Below are positions 30,316-64,000 of a stretch of DNA of 64,000 nucleotides, one piece after another. The stretch spans positions 9,259-73,258 of the forward strand of contig VMFR01000001.1 in assembly GCA_007376135.1 (NCBI GenBank). The letters run 5' to 3'. This DNA comes from Parcubacteria group bacterium Gr01-1014_31. Lineage in GTDB: Bacteria; Patescibacteriota; Patescibacteriia; Buchananbacterales; GWA2-38-13. The position numbers were made by a program, and so were the translations under genes. Under the pieces are notes generated by a model. That model searched no databases, had not been told where the DNA came from, and saw only the letters and a program-made list of their open reading frames with translations. Position 1 is the first letter of the stretch. Each line of letters starts with the position of its first letter.

Positions 30316-31779
30316 ATGCCCAAGAAGTTCTACGTCACCACGTCCATTCCCTACGTCAATGCCGCGCCCCACATCGGGTTCGCGCTGGAGCTGGCGCAGA
30401 CGGATGCCATTGCGCGCTGGCAACGGCAGCACAAACGTGACGTTTTTTTTCTGACGGGCGCCGACGAGAACAGCCTCAAGAACGTCCGTGCGGCCGAAGC
30501 CGAAAAGATGTCCACGCCGGAGCTGGTCATCCGCAATACGCAGCGTTTTTCCGACCTCGGCAAGGCGTTGAACATCTCGAACAGCGCGTTCATTCGGACG
30601 TCATTGCCCGAGCATCACGCCGGTGCTCAGGCGCTGTGGCGCGCCTGCAAGTCGGAGGATATCTATCGTAAGAGCTATCAGGGGTTGTACTGTGTGGGGT
30701 GCGAGACGTTCTACTTGGAAAAGGACCTGGTCGGCGGCACCTGCCCCGAGCACCGCACCGTCCCCGAGCTCGTCAATGAGGAGAACTACTTTTTCCGCCT
30801 CTCCGCCTACCAGCAGCGCCTGCTGCAGCTGATCAACGACGGCACCCTGGAGATCATTCCGGAGGGTCGGCGTAACGAGATCACCAGCTTCATCAGCATG
30901 GGATTGGAGGATTTCAGCATTTCGCGCTCGCGCACTCGGGCTAAGGACTGGGGCGTGGATGTGCCGGGCGATCCGGGCCAGGTGATGTACGTCTGGTTCG
31001 ATGCGTTGTCCAATTACTTGACGGCGCTGGGCTACGGGCAGAAACCCGCTCCGCGCTACAAGCGCTATTGGCCAGCCGACCTGCATGTCATCGGCAAGGG
31101 GATCACCCGTTTTCACGCGGTGTACTGGCCGGCGATGCTGTTGTCCGCGGGTGTCCCGTTGCCCAGGCGTATCTTTGTCCACGGCTACATTACCGTCGGC
31201 GGGGGAAAGATCTCCAAGTCGTTGGGGAACACCGTCGATCCGTTCGCGCTGATCGATGAGTTCGGCGCCGACCCGGTGCGCTACTACTTGCTGCGCTACG
31301 TCCACCCCACCCAGGACAGCGATTTTTCTGCCGAGAAGGTCGCCGAAGCGTACCAGGCCGACCTGGCCAATGGGCTGGGCAATCTGACCTCGCGGGTGAC
31401 CGGTCTGATCGAACAGAGCAAGATGGAGATCACCCCGCGGAAGCTTCCGTCGCCGTCCAAAGAGTTGGCGGCGGCGATGGCCTCCTTCGATTTCAATGAA
31501 GCGTTGCGACTGGTCTGGGAAGAGGTGCGTCGGACCGACGCGCTCATCGCGGCGGCGGAACCCTGGAAGCTGGCCAAGGCCGGCAAGACCACACAGCTCA
31601 AGACGGTCCTGGCCAAGGCCCTGACGGGATTGGCCACCGCCGCGTTCTGGCTGGAGCCGTTCCTGCCGGCGACGGCGGAAAAGATCCAAAACTCACTGGC
31701 GGTGCGTCCCATGGTCAAAGTGGCGCCGCTGTTCCCGCGCCTTGAAATCAAAGAGCCTGCGGCTCCAGCCCAGGTCTAA
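30316..31779 (+). CDS. metG: methionyl-tRNA synthetase (short form without C-terminal tRNA-binding extension)
   Basis: HIGH-like PYVNAAPHIGF, zinc knuckle CxxC...CxxC, KISKS. Confidence 0.9.
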   Translation: MPKKFYVTTSIPYVNAAPHIGFALELAQTDAIARWQRQHKRDVFFLTGADENSLKNVRAAEAEKMSTPELVIRNTQRFSDLGKALNISNSAFIRTSLPEHHAGAQALWRACKSEDIYRKSYQGLYCVGCETFYLEKDLVGGTCPEHRTVPELVNEENYFFRLSAYQQRLLQLINDGTLEIIPEGRRNEITSFISMGLEDFSISRSRTRAKDWGVDVPGDPGQVMYVWFDALSNYLTALGYGQKPAPRYKRYWPADLHVIGKGITRFHAVYWPAMLLSAGVPLPRRIFVHGYITVGGGKISKSLGNTVDPFALIDEFGADPVRYYLLRYVHPTQDSDFSAEKVAEAYQADLANGLGNLTSRVTGLIEQSKMEITPRKLPSPSKELAAAMASFDFNEALRLVWEEVRRTDALIAAAEPWKLAKAGKTTQLKTVLAKALTGLATAAFWLEPFLPATAEKIQNSLAVRPMVKVAPLFPRLEIKEPAAPAQV

Positions 31780-31802: not shown

Positions 31803-32354
31803 ATGATCACGCTGAGTCTGCCGGACTTTGTGATGGTGCTGGTGATCGTGTGCTTTGGGGCGTTCGGTTTCGCGCTCGGATTGATCCAGGTGGTCGGCAG
31901 CCTCGTGGGGATGGTGGTTGGCGCGTGGCTCGCCAGCCTCTCCTATTCGCCGCTGAGCAGGCAGATGAGCCAATACTTTTTGGGTCGGACCGGGGCGGCT
32001 GATGCGACCGCCTTTCTTATCGTCTTTTTGCTGGTCAACCGGCTGTCGGCGGCCGTGTTCTTCGTTCTCAACCGCGTATTTCGCCTCTTGTCCTTCATTC
32101 CGTTCCTGAAGACGTTCAATCGGATCCTGGGCGCCGCCTTTGGTTTTTTGGAAGGCGCACTGCTGCTGGGTATTATTCTGCGCGCCGCGCAGCACTTTAG
32201 CGCGTTTCCGTGGGTGACCCAGCTGATCGGCGAATCGAAGATCGCCGGTTTCCTCCTGGCGTTGGTACAGCTCGCGTCTCCGCTCTTACCCGCGCTCTTG
32301 TCGGTCGTTCGGCCCGCTTCCCCCATACCCAATGAGCAGCTTCCGGTTATTTGA
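31803..32354 (+). CDS. CvpA-family membrane protein
   Basis: 4 TM, N-terminal LPDFVMVLVIVCFGAFGF pattern typical of CvpA; weak. Confidence 0.45.
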   Translation: MITLSLPDFVMVLVIVCFGAFGFALGLIQVVGSLVGMVVGAWLASLSYSPLSRQMSQYFLGRTGAADATAFLIVFLLVNRLSAAVFFVLNRVFRLLSFIPFLKTFNRILGAAFGFLEGALLLGIILRAAQHFSAFPWVTQLIGESKIAGFLLALVQLASPLLPALLSVVRPASPIPNEQLPVI

Positions 32355-33162
32355 TTCTCACGCCCACGTCAATTTCGTCGCGTTCGAAGACGATTGGCGC
32401 GCGGTGTTGGATGACTGCCAGCGGCACGGCGTGGCCGTTACCTTGGTAGGGTCACAGTTGCCGACCAGCCGTCGTGCCATCGAGCTGGCCGAACTCTATC
32501 CGGAGGGTGTGTACGCTGCCGTCGGTCTGCATCCGGTGCATGTTGCCGACCAGCCGCAGCCGTTCCGCGTCGAGGACTACGCCGCCATGATTTCCGCGTC
32601 GTCCAGGGTGGTCGCCATCGGGGAAACCGGCATCGATCATTTTCGTCTGCCGGCGGGACGCGAGGCCCAAGATCTGGAACGTCAGCGCGAGGTGTTCATT
32701 GCTCAACTGCGTTTGGCGCGCGACCATGAACTGGCATTGGTGATTCATACGCGCGAACATCCCACGAAGCCGCCCGCCGCGTATGCCGAGGTTTTGGGGA
32801 TCCTGCGGCGCGAGCAGGCCGCAGGCTTGCCGCAGGGCGTCATCCATTGTTTTTTGGGCACCGTTGAGGAGGCCGAGGCGTTCACTGCGTTGGGGCTGTA
32901 CGTCGGCATCACCGGCATCATCACGTTCGAAAAAAGGTCCGAGCAGTTGCGCCGCGTGGCCGCTGCCGTGCCGCTCGAGCGGCTGGTGGTGGAAACCGAT
33001 AGCCCGTATCTGGCGCCGCAATCCTACCGCGGCAAGCGCAATCAGCCGCAGTACGTCGCGCACGTCGTGGAGGAGATCGCCCGCTGCAAGGGGGTAAGTG
33101 CGGCGGTCGCCGCTGAGCAAACGAGTGAGAATGCGCGGCGGCTTTTCGGCATAAAAAATTGA
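32332..33162 (+). CDS. TatD-family metal-dependent hydrolase/DNase
   Basis: FDSHAHVNF ... IGETGIDH ... ETDSPYLAP. Confidence 0.85.
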   Translation: MSSFRLFDSHAHVNFVAFEDDWRAVLDDCQRHGVAVTLVGSQLPTSRRAIELAELYPEGVYAAVGLHPVHVADQPQPFRVEDYAAMISASSRVVAIGETGIDHFRLPAGREAQDLERQREVFIAQLRLARDHELALVIHTREHPTKPPAAYAEVLGILRREQAAGLPQGVIHCFLGTVEEAEAFTALGLYVGITGIITFEKRSEQLRRVAAAVPLERLVVETDSPYLAPQSYRGKRNQPQYVAHVVEEIARCKGVSAAVAAEQTSENARRLFGIKN

Positions 33163-33181
33163 ATAATTTTAGGCGCGGGGG

Positions 33182-33210
33182 TTGACACGCCCATCGCTTT
33201 GTGGTATTCT
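33182..33210 (+). promoter_or_regulatory. sigma70 promoter TTGACA-N17-TATTCT with TGn extended -10
   Basis: hexamers 33182-33187 and 33205-33210; TG at 33202-33203. Confidence 0.55.
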
Positions 33211-33267
33211 CGTTTCGCTTCATTCAGCGATTGTTTCGTTGAACAAGCGTTTGACGTTTGGTCTGTC

Positions 33268-33298
33268 TGCCAACGGTGGCAGATTGCCACCGTTGGCA
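33268..33298 (+). repeat. 31-bp perfect palindrome TGCCAACGGTGGCA-GAT-TGCCACCGTTGGCA in the leader of the NYN gene
   Basis: 14-bp perfect inverted repeat, 3-nt spacer; sits just 5' of a strong SD/9-codon uORF. Confidence 0.7.
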
Positions 33299-33322
33299 CC
33301 CTCGGGAAAGGAGGTAGTTGCA

Positions 33323-33352
33323 ATGCAGAACCGTCGTACGTTCACAATTTGA
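33323..33352 (+). CDS. 9-codon upstream ORF MQNRRTFTI with strong SD (GAAAGGAGG)
   Basis: followed by GC-rich hairpin plus TGTTTTT (33371-33399) then the SD of the main gene; leader-peptide-like layout. Confidence 0.25.
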   Translation: MQNRRTFTI

Positions 33353-33440
33353 CAGTTCGTCAACGTTTAGGGGCGCGCGCGTAGCGATGCCCTGTTTTTC
33401 CACCCTTGATTCCACGCCGTCGTGCGCAGAAGGAGCACCC

Positions 33441-34523
33441 ATGTCCTATGAGTGGAAAAGAGGTGGAGAGAGTGTAAAGGTGTCGTTCCGCGTGAACGAC
33501 CGACCCCCGCCCGAAACTTCGGGACTCTCGGTGGTTGGAACCGATATGGTGGAGCGATTTCGCAGCCGCTATATCGGGATTGTCGCCGCGCCCGGCGAGC
33601 CGCAAACCGAAGCCATGCGCAAGGCGGTATTCCCCGCCAACCGGATGGTCGAGGATGCCCTCGACGCGCTCGCGCGGCACTGTCGTCCTCCCTGGCGGCT
33701 CTCGTGCTATCTGATGACGCGGGAGACGGTTTTCTCGGCCTACGAGGTCGATTATTTCAGGGCCAAGAACCTGAAACTCGACCCGGAAGAGCTCTTCCAA
33801 TCCCTGCTGTTGCGCTGTCACCATCTGGAGCAGCGTTTGAGCGCGGAAGTCCGCGCACGGGAAGGGTTGGAGCAGCAGCTCGCCGATATTGGCGAGCAGG
33901 TGCAGTGGATCGCCGCGCGGCGGCGGCGATGCGCGGTGGTCGTTGACTACCCGAATTTCCGCCAGTCGGTGCAAGCCGAAGCGGCCCGTCTGCCGTTGGA
34001 GCAAACCACCCTCACCGGTGCGGTCGAAGCCATCCGTTGGTATGCGGCAACCTGGCCGCGTGAAGTGGTCGCGGTCCAAGTCGTGGACCACTTCCGTCCG
34101 ACCGAACTGGACTTCCATCGAGCCCTCGAGGTTCATGGCTACAATTTTGTGGCCGCGCCCCCGGACGAACGGGTCAACACCACCGACCAGGTGGTGCGCG
34201 ACGAAGCGCTGCGACTGGCGCAACGCCAGGATCTTCGGCTGCAGGAGCTTTTCCTGTTCACCGGCGACGGTGATTTCGCGCCGCTGGTCCGCACGCTCCG
34301 GGACGAGTATGGGCTCAAAGTGTTCGTGGCCGGATTCCTCGGTCACGTCTCTCAGGCCCTGACCAACCTCGTACCGGTCATCTATCTGGACCACATCGTT
34401 CCGTTACCGCCACCCAGGTACTGGGTGGAACTCAAGGCCGTCGAGCTGGCCTCGGAGAGCGGCCCAAGTCCGTCGCCATCGGCGTCCGACTCGCCGTCTT
34501 CTGCACCCCCCGCGAATCCGTAA
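33441..34523 (+). CDS. protein with C-terminal NYN (LabA-like, PIN-related RNase) domain and ~190-aa unknown N-terminal domain
   Basis: SD GAAGGAG 5 nt before ATG 33441; C-terminal AVVVDYPNF...DHFRPTELD...LFLFTGDGDFAPLV...GLKVFVAGF. Confidence 0.6.
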   Translation: MSYEWKRGGESVKVSFRVNDRPPPETSGLSVVGTDMVERFRSRYIGIVAAPGEPQTEAMRKAVFPANRMVEDALDALARHCRPPWRLSCYLMTRETVFSAYEVDYFRAKNLKLDPEELFQSLLLRCHHLEQRLSAEVRAREGLEQQLADIGEQVQWIAARRRRCAVVVDYPNFRQSVQAEAARLPLEQTTLTGAVEAIRWYAATWPREVVAVQVVDHFRPTELDFHRALEVHGYNFVAAPPDERVNTTDQVVRDEALRLAQRQDLRLQELFLFTGDGDFAPLVRTLRDEYGLKVFVAGFLGHVSQALTNLVPVIYLDHIVPLPPPRYWVELKAVELASESGPSPSPSASDSPSSAPPANP

Positions 34524-34543: not shown

Positions 34544-34577
34544 CCGCCGCTTCATTCTCGGAGCGGCGGTTTTTTTC
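34544..34577 (+). terminator. rho-independent terminator after NYN gene
   Basis: CCGCCGCT / AGCGGCGG stem, 10-nt loop, T8. Confidence 0.75.
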
Positions 34578-34622: not shown

Positions 34623-37600
34623 ATGTCCTCGGACCTGCTCGCCAATTTGAACGATGCGCAGCGCGCGGCCGTCACCCACGGCGATGGGCCGCTGTTGATC
34701 GTGGCCGGCGCGGGAACGGGCAAAACGACGGTGGTGACCTCGCGAGTGGCGTGGCTCATCACGCAGGGCAAAGCGAACGCGGACGGCGTACTGGCGCTGA
34801 CGTTCACCGACAAGGCCGCCGGGGAAATGGAGGAGCGCATCGACCGGCTGGTGCCGTACGGCACCGTCGACCTGTGGGTCTCGACGTTCCACGGATTTTG
34901 CCAGCGGGTCTTGGCCGCGCATGCCGTGGACATCGGGCTGCCGGGCAATTTCCGTCTGCTGAACGCGACCCAGCAGTGGCTGCTGGTGCGTGAGCATTTG
35001 GATGAGTTTAAACTTAAGTATTACCGGCCGTTGGGCAATCCGGCGAAATTCATCCACGCGCTGCTCTCCCATTTTGGCCGCGCCAAGGACGAGGCTGTCA
35101 GTCCGGAGGAATACCTGCGGTTCGGCAAGGAGCTGGCCCTCAACACGGACACCGACCGATTCGTGTCGCAGATCCTGACCGAGGACGAGCGCGCGCAGCT
35201 GACGGCCGGGGAGGTGCGCGAATTGGCGGCCATGGAGATCAGCAAGATCAACGAGGTGGCCGAGGCATACTTTACGTACCAGCGGCTGTTGCTAGACCAA
35301 GGCGCACTGGATTTCGGCGATCTCATCACCTCCATGCTGCGGCTGCTGCGCGAGCGTCCCAAGCTGTTGGCCCAGTATCGAGCGCAGTTCAAGTACGTAC
35401 TGGTGGATGAATTTCAAGATACCAACTGGGCGCAGTACGAATTGGTCAAGCTGCTGGCGGAACCGAAGCGCAACATTACCGTGGTGGGCGACGACGACCA
35501 GTCTATCTATAAATTCCGCGGCGCGTCGGTCGCCAACATTTTACAGTTCAAGGACGATTACCCCCAGGCGCGCGAGATCTTTTTGACCACCAACTACCGT
35601 TCGCGGCAGGGCATCCTGGACGCCAGTTACCAGGCCATCCAGCGCAACAATCCTGAGCGTTTGGAGGTCATTTTGGCGGCGCGCAACGCGGGGAAGGGCT
35701 TGTCCAAGCGATTGACTGCCGTACGAAGGGGCGATGCGGCGTTGCAGGTGATCGTCGCTCCGACGGCCGAAGACGAGGTGCGGCAAGTGGTCGGTATGAT
35801 CCGCGAACGCAAGGAAAAAGATCCGGCTTTGAATTGGTCGGATTTCGCGGTGCTGGCGCGCGCCAACGACCACCTCAACGGGTTCGATTACGGCCTGCAG
35901 CAGGCTAGTATCCCGTACCTGCTGTATTCTTCGCGCGGCCTGTACACGAAACCCGTCGTGCTGGACGTCGTCGCGCTCCTGCGGCTGCTGGACAATTACC
36001 ACGAGAGTCCGGCGATGTACCGGGTGCTGACTTGGGCGGTTTGGGACCTGCCGCAGGCGGCGTTGGTTGCCCTCAACTACTGGGCGCACCGCAAGGCGCG
36101 CTCGCTCTACCACGTGGCGCGCGATGCGTCCGGCGTGCCGGAGCTCGACGACGAGGTACGCGCCAAGCTCTCCGCCGTCGTCGCCTTGGTGGACGAACTG
36201 GCAAAATTGACGCGTGAGAAAACCGCCCGTGAGGTCGTGTTGGAGCTGCTGCAGCGGTCCGGGTACCTGGCATGGCTGACGGGCAGTGAAGACGCGCGTC
36301 GGCTGGAGCAGGTCGGCTACCTCAACCAGTTCTTCCGCGTTTTGACCAATTTTGAAACGACGGCGGCGGATCGCAGCGTGCGCGCATTCTTGCGTCAGTT
36401 CACGCTCGAGCTGGAGGCGGGGGAGGCCGGTGCGCTGGCGCCGGAGCTGGAGCAGGGTCCGGACGCCGTGCGGCTGATGACCGTGCATGCGGCCAAGGGG
36501 CTGGAATTCTCCCATGTCTTCGTGGTCAATATGGCCGAGCGGCGGTTCCCGACGACCGAACGCGCCGAGACCATCCCGTTGCCCGCCGGCCTCATCAAGG
36601 AGCGATTGCCGGGCGGGGATGTGCACCTGCAGGAGGAGCGCCGGCTCTTATACGTGGCCGTCACGCGAGCCAAGGATTCCATTACCTTCAGCTATGCTCA
36701 GCGGTACGGCGGCACGAGAGCAAAAAAGCCCAGTCCGTTTTTGGCCGAGCTCAATCTCGTGCCGCCCGAGGAAGCGGCGCGTCCTGTCGGGGTTGTACCG
36801 CAACTGGATCTGGAGGCTGGTGAGAGCCATGCGTTGCCCAAGGGGCGGCATGAGTTTTACCGCATGCCCGTAAAGTTCTCGTACTCGCAATTGAAGGCGT
36901 ATGAGACCTGCCCGTGGAAATACCGTTTCGCTTTCCTGCTGCGTGTTCCGGTGCGCGGCCGCGCCGTCTTCAGTTTCGGCCAAACCATTCACGCCGTGCT
37001 GCAGCGGACCTACGAGCTGGTGGTAAATCGTCAGGGAGCGGCACAAACCACGCTGTTCGACTCTCCGCGCGGCGGCGGGGCCCGGCCCGTGGGCGAGCTG
37101 GTGCGGCTGGAGGAATTGCGGCAGCTGTATCGCGACTGCTGGGTGGATGATTGGTATGAAAATCCACAGCGGAGAGAGGAGAATTTTGCTCACGGCTTGG
37201 AGCTTATCGCCGATTACTATGCGTTCATCAAAGACCAGGTGGTCAATCCCAAATACTTGGAGCAGGGGTTTAATTTGAAATTGGAAGATCAGGCGACCGG
37301 CCGTTCCCATATCCTGTTCGGCAAGATCGACCGCGTGGATGAGCGCGACGGCAAATTGTCACTCATCGATTACAAGACAGGAAAGCCCAAGGACAAGCTG
37401 GCCACCGAAGATAAGGAGCAGTTGCTCATCTACCAGTTGGCCGCGGCCGAGATCTTCGGCCAGCCCGTCACCAGCCTGACGCTCTACTACCTTGAGGGTA
37501 ACCGGCAGCAATCATTCCTCGGCACCGACAAGGATCTAGCACGGCTGAAAACCAAAGTGTTGACGGCGATCGCCGAGATCGAGCGCGGTCGGTTCGTACC

Positions 37601-37664
37601 CACGCCGGGCAAGGTGTGCGCCAGCTGCGAGTTTCGCGACATTTGCGAGTACCGGGCAATGTAA
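34623..37664 (+). CDS. UvrD/PcrA-family SF1 helicase fused to C-terminal PD-(D/E)XK nuclease with Cas4/AddB-type Cys cluster
   Basis: AGAGTGKTTV Walker A, DEFQDTN, helicase motifs; C-terminal ...DYKTGK... and CASCEFRDIC (CxxCxxxxC) at the extreme C-terminus. Confidence 0.8.
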   Translation: MSSDLLANLNDAQRAAVTHGDGPLLIVAGAGTGKTTVVTSRVAWLITQGKANADGVLALTFTDKAAGEMEERIDRLVPYGTVDLWVSTFHGFCQRVLAAHAVDIGLPGNFRLLNATQQWLLVREHLDEFKLKYYRPLGNPAKFIHALLSHFGRAKDEAVSPEEYLRFGKELALNTDTDRFVSQILTEDERAQLTAGEVRELAAMEISKINEVAEAYFTYQRLLLDQGALDFGDLITSMLRLLRERPKLLAQYRAQFKYVLVDEFQDTNWAQYELVKLLAEPKRNITVVGDDDQSIYKFRGASVANILQFKDDYPQAREIFLTTNYRSRQGILDASYQAIQRNNPERLEVILAARNAGKGLSKRLTAVRRGDAALQVIVAPTAEDEVRQVVGMIRERKEKDPALNWSDFAVLARANDHLNGFDYGLQQASIPYLLYSSRGLYTKPVVLDVVALLRLLDNYHESPAMYRVLTWAVWDLPQAALVALNYWAHRKARSLYHVARDASGVPELDDEVRAKLSAVVALVDELAKLTREKTAREVVLELLQRSGYLAWLTGSEDARRLEQVGYLNQFFRVLTNFETTAADRSVRAFLRQFTLELEAGEAGALAPELEQGPDAVRLMTVHAAKGLEFSHVFVVNMAERRFPTTERAETIPLPAGLIKERLPGGDVHLQEERRLLYVAVTRAKDSITFSYAQRYGGTRAKKPSPFLAELNLVPPEEAARPVGVVPQLDLEAGESHALPKGRHEFYRMPVKFSYSQLKAYETCPWKYRFAFLLRVPVRGRAVFSFGQTIHAVLQRTYELVVNRQGAAQTTLFDSPRGGGARPVGELVRLEELRQLYRDCWVDDWYENPQRREENFAHGLELIADYYAFIKDQVVNPKYLEQGFNLKLEDQATGRSHILFGKIDRVDERDGKLSLIDYKTGKPKDKLATEDKEQLLIYQLAAAEIFGQPVTSLTLYYLEGNRQQSFLGTDKDLARLKTKVLTAIAEIERGRFVPTPGKVCASCEFRDICEYRAM

Positions 37665-42276: not shown

Positions 42277-42313
42277 AAAAAAAGGAGTTCGTCGGTTGAC
42301 GAACTCCTTTTTG
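42277..42313. terminator. bidirectional intrinsic terminator between convergent genes
   Basis: perfect 10-bp stem GGAGTTCGTC / GACGAACTCC, 4-nt loop, flanked by A7 and T5. Confidence 0.8.
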
Positions 42314-42342: not shown

Positions 42343-43209
42343 TCACTCCGTTGTTTGGCGGCGGGTGATGACCACTGTGAGGAAATCAAAGCGGTTCGGT
42401 GAAACGTTGACAACGTCCAGTCCATGATCCCTGACGCTGCGATGGAGATCAGACATCGCCTTGCCGTCGCAAGAAATCGTCCATGGTCCCGTCGGGAGGA
42501 AGCCGAAACCTGGCGGCCATGGGGCATGGATGATTAGCACCGCGTCTTGGGTGAAGCGCAGCGCATGATGCGCAAAGTCCAGCAACGCGGTGACCTCGCT
42601 GAAGGTCGAGAATGGCAGCTCGAACCGGCTTAGCAGACCGTCAACGGATTTGTCGGCGGGTCTGATGACCTGCACAAGGCCAGAGTCGACAAGGGTGATG
42701 CGTTCGAGTTGGTGACGTTCCCGCAAGAGGACGGCCAGGCGTTCGTGCAGCCATGCGATGCTGGCCGCGTCGGTGATGACCGTCAGGCGGTAGGCGTGCC
42801 GTGCCGCGTCCGCCAGGTCCTTCACGGCGTCCCGGTAACTGCCGACCAAAAAAATCCGCGGCGCCTCGAGGGGATCGAATCGTGACACCAGCTGCGGAAT
42901 GAGGTGGGCAGCGGGCAGAAAATTCCAGTCGGTGTCTCTCAACAGAGAACGATCCGTTAAGAAACCTTGCCGATAGCCACGACGGCGTTGACGGGTATGG
43001 CGTTTGGGATCAGGTTTGCCTGCATCGCGCGATACCCAATAGGGTACTTTTGGCCGTTTACTCACGGCGACCTCCTTTCTTTTGTCAGAGAACATCGTCG
43101 GGAACAAACGATGATCCACTCTAGGATAAACATTGTCCTCTGTCAAGGAAAAACGGAAAAACTGATTTGAAAATATCGCGGACTCCTCCCTTGGGGTACC
43201 TTCCGCCAT
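42343..43209 (-). CDS. hypothetical protein (288 aa)
   Basis: ORF track, ATG 43209; no confident family assignment. Confidence 0.4.
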   Translation of the reverse strand: MAEGTPREESAIFSNQFFRFSLTEDNVYPRVDHRLFPTMFSDKRKEVAVSKRPKVPYWVSRDAGKPDPKRHTRQRRRGYRQGFLTDRSLLRDTDWNFLPAAHLIPQLVSRFDPLEAPRIFLVGSYRDAVKDLADAARHAYRLTVITDAASIAWLHERLAVLLRERHQLERITLVDSGLVQVIRPADKSVDGLLSRFELPFSTFSEVTALLDFAHHALRFTQDAVLIIHAPWPPGFGFLPTGPWTISCDGKAMSDLHRSVRDHGLDVVNVSPNRFDFLTVVITRRQTTE

Positions 43210-55716: not shown

Positions 55717-55885
55717 GGGGTCCTCCTTCGGTGAATGTGATATGGATCACCGACACCCTACGCCGTCGTTGACCCGTCGTCAAGTGCGCGCAGTCCGTAT
55801 TTACATCCGTGCGAGTATTTGTTACCATCTATTTTTGTACCCGTTCGTATTTTGGAGTATTCAATCCCGTGGTTAAGGAGGTTGC

Positions 55886-63589: not shown

Positions 63590-64000
63590 TTATGTTTTTA
63601 CGGGCTGGTTGCCCTCGTTATCTCGGTCTTCCGTGGGCGGCGTTCCGCCATTCTGTGCCTCATGGCCGTTCGTGCTTCCGTTGTTACGGTAGCAGAAGCG
63701 CGGGTCGTCCAGCAGGACCACCTCGTCGGCTGCGTCACGGAGCGCGGCGGATAAATTCGAGCGGAAGCTCATCACGACCACATAGTGGCCGCTGCGTTGA
63801 AGGTCGACCATGAGATCGATGAAATCACCATCACCGGTAATGAGCACGGCCACATCGAGTTGCGGCGCAAAATTTTTGGCGTCAACCGCGAGGCCGACGT
63901 CCCAGTTCCCCTTGCGCATCCCGTCGGGGAAAATTTGGAGGTCTTTCGCCCGCACCCGGTAGCCGGAACATTTCAGGCTATAGATATACGCTTGCTTGCT
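63590..64000 (-). CDS. NYN-domain (LabA-like) protein, 5'-partial (continues beyond window end)
   Basis: GNWDVGLAVDA...VLITGDGDFIDL...HYVVVMSF; frame open through nt 64000. Confidence 0.6.
   Translation of the reverse strand, partial: SKQAYIYSLKCSGYRVRAKDLQIFPDGMRKGNWDVGLAVDAKNFAPQLDVAVLITGDGDFIDLMVDLQRSGHYVVVMSFRSNLSAALRDAADEVVLLDDPRFCYRNNGSTNGHEAQNGGTPPTEDRDNEGNQPVKT

Follow-up and report, generated by a model that had tools for sequence, protein, structure and literature searches.

The 64-kb window analysed here, the whole stretch of DNA under study, comes from Parcubacteria group bacterium Gr01-1014_31, a member of the Candidate Phyla Radiation (CPR), and carries on its plus strand a gene (33441-34523) for a 360-aa protein with a PIN-like NYN domain. 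We consider it moderately probable that the interval in front of this gene consists of a promoter and a structured 5′ leader of ~225 nt, which acts as plus-strand RNA and serves as a post-transcriptional throttle or operator for the NYN gene. According to structure predictions, a conserved RNA structure encloses the Shine-Dalgarno (SD) sequence and the start codon, and the best-supported core of the leader is a bracketing helix, B:C, formed by a pyrimidine tract (B) upstream of the SD and a purine tract (C) within the coding region. The original prediction, an earlier reading of the DNA letters, had described a structured, promoter-driven 5′ leader of the NYN gene, and this description is supported. 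It had further taken the layout for that of a leader-peptide attenuator, or of a protein operator combined with a switch based on an upstream open reading frame (uORF). The features of the locus are as follows.

33182-33210, plus strand: sigma-70-type promoter, with the -35 hexamer TTGACA at 33182-33187, a spacer of 17 nt and a TG-extended -10 hexamer TATTCT at 33205-33210 (10/12 consensus)
33217-33248, plus strand: H1, 5′-proximal stem-loop, GCUU..UUC.GCGA / UCGU.GAA..AAGC (RNAalifold, -13.2 kcal/mol)
33260-33332, plus strand: P2, predicted closing helix, GGUCUGU.UGC at 33260-33270 with GCA..GCAGAACC at 33320-33332 (RNAalifold)
33268-33298, plus strand: P3, RNA hairpin corresponding to the '31-bp palindrome', with 14 bp closing a loop of 3 nt (-27.1 kcal/mol)
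33306-33314, plus strand: element A, GAAAGGAGG, 127-135 nt upstream of the NYN start and partly in a weak local hairpin (33296-33315)
33323-33352, plus strand: 9-codon uORF MQNRRTFTI, with its ATG at 33323 and its TGA stop at 33352; not conserved
33349-33363, plus strand: P5, small hairpin UUGAC-N5-GUCAA (5 bp, -3.6 kcal/mol)
33370-33399, plus strand: T, terminator-like GC hairpin, 33370-33378 / 33384-33393, 9 pairs and a bulge (-14.6 kcal/mol), followed by GUUUUU at 33394-33399
33395-33415, plus strand: B, pyrimidine tract UUUUUCCACCCUUGAUUCCAC with two UCCAC repeats, the 5′ strand of the bracketing helix
33430-33443, plus strand: main SD AAGGAG and NYN ATG, both within the 36-nt loop that B:C closes; a weak hairpin is predicted locally (33420-33433 / 33438-33451)
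33452-33471, plus strand: C, purine tract GUGGAAAAGAGGUGGAGAGA in NYN codons 4-11 with two GUGGA repeats, the 3′ strand of the bracketing helix
33441-34523, plus strand: the regulated NYN gene, 360 aa, with an N-terminal domain (residues ~1-105), a helix (115-159) and a C-terminal NYN (PIN-like) domain

Promoter, long leader and predicted bracketing helix of the NYN gene

The NYN protein belongs to a rare family, for which an exhaustive HMMER search found 17 representatives at E ≤ 1e-3 among 1.84 billion cluster representatives. DNA was recovered for nine family loci (the window plus L001, L002, L003, L004, L005 and L006-L009). L001, from another metagenome-assembled genome (MAG), is the nearest relative, with 93% protein and 87% DNA identity to the window; protein identity is 45-49% for L002 and L004, 33-37% for L005 and 22-32% for L003 and L006-L009. 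A scan of genome contigs for relatives led to one locus, L001, and three word-indexed protein searches returned P0001, P0002 and P0018 only. A metagenome scan with protein alignment for family members gave no match, and a scan of viral contigs gave a generic NYN only.

The TTGACA-N17-TATTCT promoter named in the original prediction was confirmed at 33182-33210, and both of its hexamers are identical in L001. Exactly one match to TTGACA-N16-18-TAnnnT was found 91-233 nt before the start codon in nine of nine family loci, while the whole window holds nine such matches on its two strands; a strong promoter followed by a long leader is therefore a family trait. The transcription start site (TSS) inferred from the promoter, ~33217, gives a leader of ~225 nt. 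A TSS downstream of the palindrome and the uORF had been named in the original prediction as an outcome that would speak against it. We found no promoter-like site in the leader between the promoter at 33182-33210 and the NYN gene, and because the same consensus promoter stands at this distance from the start codon in all nine loci, the TSS very probably lies upstream of both elements.

The leader is 84.5% identical to that of L001, compared to 65-70% at the four-fold degenerate sites of the flanking genes, which shows that neutral sites have diverged substantially between the two genomes. Identity is uneven along the leader, with 100% stretches (33200-33238 and 33371-33416) interspersed with stretches of 60-68%. 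Rfam 15 gave no match at the gathering score in the window and, at E ≤ 10, only chance microRNA- or small nucleolar RNA-like matches (E = 1-4) in 33100-33520. At E ≤ 0.1, no Rfam match was found in the nine homologous loci; there is no tRNA or transfer-messenger RNA in the region, and a literature search for an NYN-associated RNA motif in CPR bacteria returned nothing relevant. Most of the housekeeping genes tested in the window (MetRS, CvpA, TatD, PheS and PheT; starts at 30316, 31803, 32332, 38710 and 39769) lack a recognisable SD within the 18 nt upstream of the start codon; SD use appears to be sparse in this genome, and against it the two SD-type elements of the NYN leader stand out.

RNAalifold predicted 19 pairs between UUUCCACCC..UCCAC (33395-33415) and GUGGA..GGUGGAGAGA (33452-33471) in the window and L001. 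The same bipartite helix was present in the single-sequence minimum-free-energy (MFE) structures of the window, L001, L004 and L005, with 11-19 pairs and a loop of 35-47 nt that contains the SD and the AUG; the MAFFT alignment of the four lineages from B to C mis-registers L005, and the pairs were counted from the per-sequence folds. The B motif, CCACCC-N1-5-UCCAC, is unique in the window. It is kept 15-30 nt upstream of the SD in L001, L004 (GUUUCCACCCGUCCAC) and L005 (GACCACCCGAUCCAC) and partly in L002, which is cut off at UCCAC, and hence in lineages with 33-49% protein identity. Since its frame relative to the ATG differs from locus to locus, B is non-coding. In L005, the start of the deposited P0005 gene call has been placed 19 codons too far upstream; translation probably begins at ATG 341, which AAGGAG precedes, and the called N-terminal extension (284-340) is leader that includes the conserved CCACCC..UCCAC tract. 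When metagenome DNA was searched with the pattern CCACCC-N1-5-TCCAC-N30-60-GGTGGAGA, at least 120 loci were returned; none encodes an NYN family member, and we therefore regard them as chance matches.

The partner tract C contains the codons AGA GGT GGA GAG AGT, whose usage in the genome is 0.02, 0.13, 0.12, 0.66 and 0.09, respectively. GGT GGA GAG AGT recur in the window, L001 (read from alignments), L002 and L004, and GGT GGA GAG in L005. The tract encodes an N-terminal tail that begins at low confidence in the protein model, in which residues 1-4 have a predicted local distance difference test (pLDDT) score below 50 and the first 10-residue block averages 50. The sole L001 change within B:C is a synonymous AAA to AAG, which turns a U-A pair into U-G. 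Directly 5′ of B, a hairpin of unrelated sequence is present in three lineages. Compared with dinucleotide shuffles (n = 1000), the segment from B to C gave z = -2.8 for the window (9/1000), -3.2 for L001 (6/1000), -4.8 for L004 (0/1000) and -2.55 for L005 (16/1000). To open the start region along with C, a predicted 20.6-23.6 kcal/mol is required in the four lineages, and the opening cost from -18 to +35 is 29.9 for the NYN gene, the highest of seven genes of the window (8.4-25.8 for the others).

Judging from ribosome geometry, the 30S subunit would need about -18 to +19 in single-stranded form and could not wrap a 36-nt loop with clamped ends. For this reason B:C would be inhibitory and would have to melt before initiation, at a predicted cost of ~20-24 kcal/mol in four lineages. 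In this way the leader would hold back translation of a ribonuclease (RNase) that is strongly transcribed and may be harmful, and the SD/AUG loop would be presented as a translational operator to a trans-acting factor, for which the NYN protein itself would be the most economical candidate (autoregulation through binding or cleavage). Further upstream, GAAAGGAGG would hold 30S subunits non-productively, as a stabiliser or a standby site, and the terminator-like hairpin might add partial premature termination in the window lineage only.

Several observations weigh against this interpretation. There is no covariation in B:C: both strands are nearly invariant, and C is also under coding constraint. 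In RNAduplex tests against shuffled leaders, pairing was significant only for the window (4/500) and L001 (12/500), and not for L004 (235/500) or L005 (146/500). Neither the SD nor the AUG is more paired than with shuffled flanks, and the -18 to +19 footprint of L004 and L005 is easier to open than 91-98% of shuffles. On this evidence the helix surrounds the start region without pairing to the SD itself, and for the same reason B:C could, as modelled, display or insulate the start region rather than repress it. In addition, the 5′ half of the leader (H1, P2, P4 and P5) is drawn from two sequences with 87% identity, the L001 leader alone folds no better than shuffles (z = -0.39), and in L003 and L006-L009 the B and C motifs are lacking, although promoter and long leader are retained. 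Synonymous divergence also bears on the comparison with L001. Four-fold sites of the NYN gene are 88% identical, compared to 65-70% in its neighbours, and third-position identity is 80-98% along the gene (peak at 33683), compared to 58-80% in the flanking genes; first and second positions are ordinary (95-96%). The low divergence would mean one of two things: a tract of recent recombination, with the constraint on the protein relaxed, or selection acting on the mRNA itself. Recombination may explain part of the identity across 33371-33440, which would weaken the argument from pairwise conservation.

Two other predicted helices frame the 5′ part of the leader. In the H1 stem, two L001 changes keep pairing (G-U to G-C and U-A to U-G), and different 5′-proximal hairpins stand at the same place in L004 and L005. 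P2 encloses P3 and the SD-like element A, and two one-sided changes in L001 keep its pairing; it is based on two close sequences only and was not recovered in L004. We also observed a motif, UUGG(G)UCUG, in the leaders of the window (33260-33266, where it is the 5′ strand of P2), L001 (~2702-2710), L004 (~802-810) and the distant, AT-rich L007 (~694-702), with UUGGUCAG as its counterpart in L005. The AT-rich L006 shows a different structuring of the start region in the same family: at ~205-265, its main SD UAAGGAGGU is predicted in a single MFE structure to pair with the upstream ACCUUAAA in a helix of ~17 bp, whose loop carries an extra SD-like AACGAGGAU.

The palindrome hairpin and the upstream SD-like element

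The perfect 14-bp inverted repeat with a 3-nt spacer was found as described in the original prediction (arms at 33268-33281 and 33285-33298). The search for further copies that had been proposed was run within the 64-kb window, and the arm sequence occurs nowhere else without mismatches. P3 is one of only two perfect hairpins of at least 14 bp with a short loop in the 64 kb, and is thus beyond chance. The other, at 42279-42312 (AAAAAGGAGTTCGTC / GACGAACTCCTTTTT, 15 bp, 4-nt loop, A/T runs on both sides), resembles an intrinsic terminator active in both directions and comes right after the 3′ end (42343) of the open reading frame (ORF) 42343-43209 on the minus strand. In L001, nine of the 28 stem positions of P3 differ, about the neutral rate, and 13 of the 14 pairs are still canonical. 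Three pairs underwent compensatory double changes (C-G to G-C, A-U to G-C and U-A to C-G), two are now G-U/U-G on the plus strand, one near the base of the stem is now a C-A mismatch, and the loop has changed from GAU to AGU. When nine substitutions were placed randomly in P3 by simulation, at least 13 pairs remained intact with P = 0.006. Since pairing is kept through compensatory and wobble changes, P3 appears to act as RNA on the plus strand. The arms drift at the neutral rate while pairing is kept, which argues against a sequence-specific DNA operator. On this comparison, P3 is best described as an RNA hairpin under constraint on structure only, not on sequence.

The smaller palindrome gave a similar picture. 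The original prediction had noted two TTGAC-N5-GTCAA sites. They exist in the window, compared to 0.01 expected, and lie at 33349-33363 and 55769-55783, not at 33337-33351 and 55765-55779 as it had stated. In L001 the leader copy, P5, reads TTGAT...GTCAG, and the changes C to U and A to G turn Watson-Crick pairs into U-G, which is weak evidence. The DNA palindrome is broken while two U-G RNA pairs are kept, and P5 therefore behaves in the same way as P3. The second copy, TTGACCCGTCGTCAA, is flanked by two divergent ORFs, a small proline-/acid-rich one on the minus strand that starts near 55717 and one of 93 aa on the plus strand (55886); in this intergenic region it overlaps a -35-like TTGACG-N17-TAGGGT on the minus strand that faces the small minus-strand ORF. 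The heptamer CCGTCGT occurs twice near 55769-55783 and twice in the NYN leader (33331 and 33417) and is not kept in L001. We regard the likeness of the two TTGAC-N5-GTCAA copies as a coincidence of -35-like hexamers.

These comparisons bear directly on the operator claim of the original prediction. In a DNA-level form of this claim, the palindrome and the TTGAC-N5-GTCAA element would be bound by a dimeric transcription factor, forming a roadblock downstream of the promoter, with the 55769 site in the same regulon. The perfect dyad symmetry of the window sequence agrees with this, as do the excess of TTGAC-N5-GTCAA sites and the location of the second one in a divergent intergenic region. However, at an overall DNA identity of 87%, the half-sites are not conserved, and the L001 arms contain T-G, G-T and C-A oppositions, which are mismatches in DNA, so that dyad symmetry is lost; the smaller palindrome is lost as well, and TTGAC amounts to no more than the core of a -35 element. 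Operators do not typically have half-sites of 14 bp, and no DNA-binding regulator gene is next to the site among the identified neighbours. With the arms changed and pairing kept under RNA rules, we regard a DNA operator as extremely improbable.

Between P3 and the uORF lies element A. GAAAGGAGG is the full 9-nt complement of the anti-SD CCUCCUUUC (PMC10783764); the 3′ end of the organism's own 16S rRNA lies outside the window. The 9-mer occurs three times in the window, compared to 0.37 expected, stands within a block, GGGAAAGGAGGTAGTTGCA, that is invariant in L001, and is also present in the leader of L004. In L001 and L004 it is not followed by a start codon at a suitable distance, while the window has an ATG 8 nt downstream. 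In leaders of more distant family members, comparable purine motifs (AAACGAGGAA and UAAGGAGGAA, for example) precede the true SD. In L009 (~104-126), AUG UAG, a mini-ORF made up of a start and a stop, comes after an upstream SD, UAAGGAGGAAAAGG, and in L005 UUG AAA UCA UAA follows an upstream GAGG; upstream SD-like elements thus recur in the family, and the ORFs behind them are not conserved.

By analogy with known mRNAs, GAAAGGAGG most likely binds the 30S subunit non-productively, as a 5′ stabiliser of the STAB-SD type or as a standby site. The original work on STAB-SD is reportedly that of Agaisse and Lereclus in 1996. In cry3A mRNA of Bacillus thuringiensis, an SD-like element within the 5′ untranslated region (UTR) binds 30S subunits without initiation and blocks RNase J1 (PMC4113751). 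Like this element, GAAAGGAGG is SD-like, fully complementary to 16S rRNA, more than 100 nt before the start (127-135 nt here) and conserved without a conserved start codon. The cry3A element is near the 5′ end of a transcript starting at -129 (PMC4113751), whereas ~90 nt with two stable hairpins separate GAAAGGAGG from the predicted 5′ end upstream of it, and, in the window genome alone, it precedes a 9-codon ORF.

Alternative explanations for the leader

In the attenuator or uORF switch of the original prediction, translation of the uORF would decide between a terminator and an antiterminator, or would be coupled to translation of the NYN gene. The parts it named are present in the window: the perfect SD GAAAGGAGG (GGAGG at 33310-33314) and the ORF MQNRRTFTI come directly after the palindrome, with the ATG 8 nt after GGAGG, the GC hairpin with its U-run was confirmed at 33370-33399 before the main SD, and a fold of the window leader alone pairs the SD/AUG region of the uORF with the 3′ arm of T. 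The window alone therefore resembles the trp, his and pheA attenuators in its order of promoter, short ORF with SD, GC hairpin with U-run and structural gene. However, the ATG of the uORF is GGA in L001 and is followed by a 1-nt deletion, and the sole remaining start there, a TTG 3 nt after GGAGG, opens an unrelated frame of 21 codons. Candidate uORFs elsewhere have 1, 3, 21 or 33 codons without similarity, and none comparable follows GAAAGGAGG in L004. Because the leaders of the window and L001 differ by 1-nt indels, no coding frame can have been conserved in them. By our rough estimate, ~1/4 of SD-like motifs would have a start codon 5-10 nt downstream, and because of this and its absence in the nearest relative, the uORF is not beyond chance and is probably incidental. 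Its AUG lies inside the predicted helix P2 (33260-33270 with 33320-33332), and its stop is 43 nt before the next conserved element, so that a ribosome terminating at 33352 would presumably not reach the tract at 33395. Unlike the leader peptides of trp, his and pheA, MQNRRTFTI has no regulatory codons that match the product: it contains two Arg codons, and the regulated gene is nuclease-like, not a biosynthetic operon. The alternative folds suggested in the original prediction were also checked. No complement to 33370-33378, the 5′ arm of T, was seen in the leader on inspection by eye, and the only competing pairing found uses the 3′ arm of T and is predicted for the window sequence alone, not for L001 or L004. 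The equivalent U-run has three residues in L004 and none in L005. With no conserved frame, no complement to the 5′ arm and the uORF AUG in a helix, both the attenuator and the coupling reading fail, and we give them very little weight. Termination might instead be regulated by a ligand- or protein-sensing riboregulator with 33370-33399 as its platform and a product of ~180 nt, possibly a stable small RNA. A multi-helix 5′ domain (H1, P2, P3 and P4) with invariant blocks would suit such a device, as would the stability of T and its GUUUUU, both invariant in L001, and the fact that the NYN gene has no promoter of its own further downstream; canonical intrinsic terminators are used by this organism, for example at 34544-34569. 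However, there was no Rfam match even at E = 10 apart from the chance ones given above, no conserved antiterminator was found, and the 5′ domain is kept in neither sequence nor predicted structure in L004 or L005. T abuts tract B directly, and at its position L004 and L005 have hairpins of unrelated sequence (11 bp, -17.2 kcal/mol, and 4 bp, -5.8 kcal/mol, respectively). The U-run, short in the window, is degenerate or absent in these lineages while the position of the hairpin is kept, and we therefore see the conserved role of T as structural, stacking under the bracketing helix. T (-14.6 kcal/mol, five U) is also weaker than the 3′ terminator of the NYN gene (-19.9 kcal/mol, seven U), and it may cause partial premature termination in the window lineage only. 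We regard regulated premature termination as unlikely.

A second kind of switch would arise if element A (33303-33327) and tract C competed for the anti-SD-like tract 33379-33415, with occupancy of A by the 30S subunit or a protein setting the degree of clamping. The A:B′ duplex, which pairs the region of the 9-mer with the 3′ arm of T and the U-run, reaches -20.1 kcal/mol in the window and -20.7 kcal/mol in L001, compared to -24.4 and -23.9 kcal/mol for B:C, so that the two are of similar strength. Forcing the start region open switches the window MFE structure to A:B′, the fold of the window without the coding part also uses A:B′, and the A 9-mer is kept in L004. The switch is, however, not predicted for L001, in which the A and B′ tracts are the same and only an AUGC:GCGU extension is lost, nor for L004, whose A:B duplex reaches only -12.1 kcal/mol; L005 has no A element, and covariation is not available. 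That the leader is such an undescribed CPR riboregulator, in which the SD mimic GAAAGGAGG and the rare-codon purine tract compete for one pyrimidine tract and the mimic is occupied by free 30S subunits or by the NYN protein itself, seems to us rather unlikely; if true, it would be a ribosome-availability or autoregulatory sensor built from SD/anti-SD mimicry. The conservation might also be largely non-functional, reflecting recent ancestry or recombination, incidental hairpins in a GC-rich spacer and B/C pairing as a by-product of a conserved N-terminal peptide. The high third-position identity of the NYN gene, the unremarkable fold of the L001 leader and the non-significant RNAduplex tests for L004 and L005 all favour this explanation, and the window leader folds just as well when read on the minus strand (z = -3.45). 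It is opposed by the non-coding B motif, which persists at 33-49% protein identity, the rare codons of C, the promoter and long leader in all nine loci, the compensatory changes in P3 and the alternation of invariant and divergent blocks. We consider largely non-functional conservation improbable.

Gene neighbourhood, related systems and implications

The NYN protein is 100% identical to the MAG protein G01um101431_46 of Parcubacteria group bacterium Gr01-1014_31. The NYN-domain gene with SD AAGGAG (33430-33435) and ATG 33441 in the original prediction was confirmed, with the Pfam NYN domain at residues 164-309 of the 360-aa product (E = 1e-9). An AlphaFold2 model (mean pLDDT 79.8) has a 45-residue helix and an N-terminal domain without assigned function, and its Foldseek matches are VPA0982 (2qip) and the NYN domain of MARF1. 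The NYN domain suggests an RNase-like product. The second NYN gene that had been placed from 63590 onwards is present, but on the minus strand; its 3′ end is at 63590, and the window stops short of its 5′ end.

A spacer of 279 nt separates the NYN gene from the TatD-family gene (32332-33162). Its neighbours, described as housekeeping, are MetRS, CvpA, TatD, a UvrD/PD-(D/E)XK helicase-nuclease, PheS and PheT. An intrinsic terminator 3′ of the NYN gene (34544-34569, 10 bp followed by seven U, -19.9 kcal/mol) separates it from the helicase-nuclease gene. A UvrD helicase of ~1000 aa fused to a PD-(D/E)XK nuclease is found downstream of the NYN family gene in three divergent lineages, directly after it in the window (34623-37664) and L009 (1312-3148) and with one gene between in L003 (2733-4303). 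A defence-system search of the locus gave a weak generic NYN match only and no defence signature, and GajB-like matches of the helicase reflect generic UvrD similarity, not membership in a defence system.

Two further coding possibilities were considered and rejected. An N-terminal extension of the NYN protein from the in-frame TTG 33318 would add 41 codons; in L001 this frame stays open for no more than 10 codons before the start, and the peptides that the window and L004 would add are unrelated to each other. On the minus strand, an antisense ORF (33360-34394, 344 aa, codon-aligned frame) covers nearly all of the NYN gene, and its open stretch is 242 aa in L001 and 152 aa in L005. The antisense frame of GC-rich genes tends to stay open by chance, and the 344-aa ORF is probably an artefact of GC content and not a gene.

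The NYN leader matches no described RNA family and works, on the reading we favour, like known kinds of leader. Self-inhibitory leaders and operators that enclose the ribosome-binding region include the Escherichia coli rpoS leader, the thrS operator and the replicase operator of phage MS2. With these it shares a long leader transcribed from a strong promoter, an SD and AUG within a defined structure, and an upstream segment that pairs with a segment at or after the start and would have to open before initiation. In contrast to them, its 3′ strand lies in codons 4-11 and its SD and AUG in a loop, not a stem, and it has no sequence or Rfam relationship to them. Autoregulated ribonuclease genes with structured leaders or UTR hairpins are a second comparison, such as E. 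coli rnc, rne and pnp and, in mammals, Regnase-1 with its 3′ UTR stem-loop. The likeness lies in stable, structure-constrained hairpins in the mRNA of a nuclease gene for which tight control is plausible. Unlike RNase III or RNase E, the products of rnc and rne, the NYN domain resembles the folds of MARF1 and VPA0982, and the hairpin loops of the NYN leader vary (GAU in the window but AGU in L001).

To our knowledge, almost nothing is known about post-transcriptional control in CPR bacteria or Parcubacteria, whose genomes are small and whose spacers are short. Against this background, a 280-nt spacer taken up by a conserved promoter and a structured leader points to tight control of the NYN gene. 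When L001, the nearest relative, is brought into the comparison, both the uORF and the 'operator' fall away. If B:C and the SD mimic act as proposed, the leader would represent a compact form of translational control by pairing between leader and coding sequence, enforced via rare codons, and, if this holds true, it would be a candidate new RNA motif for Rfam.

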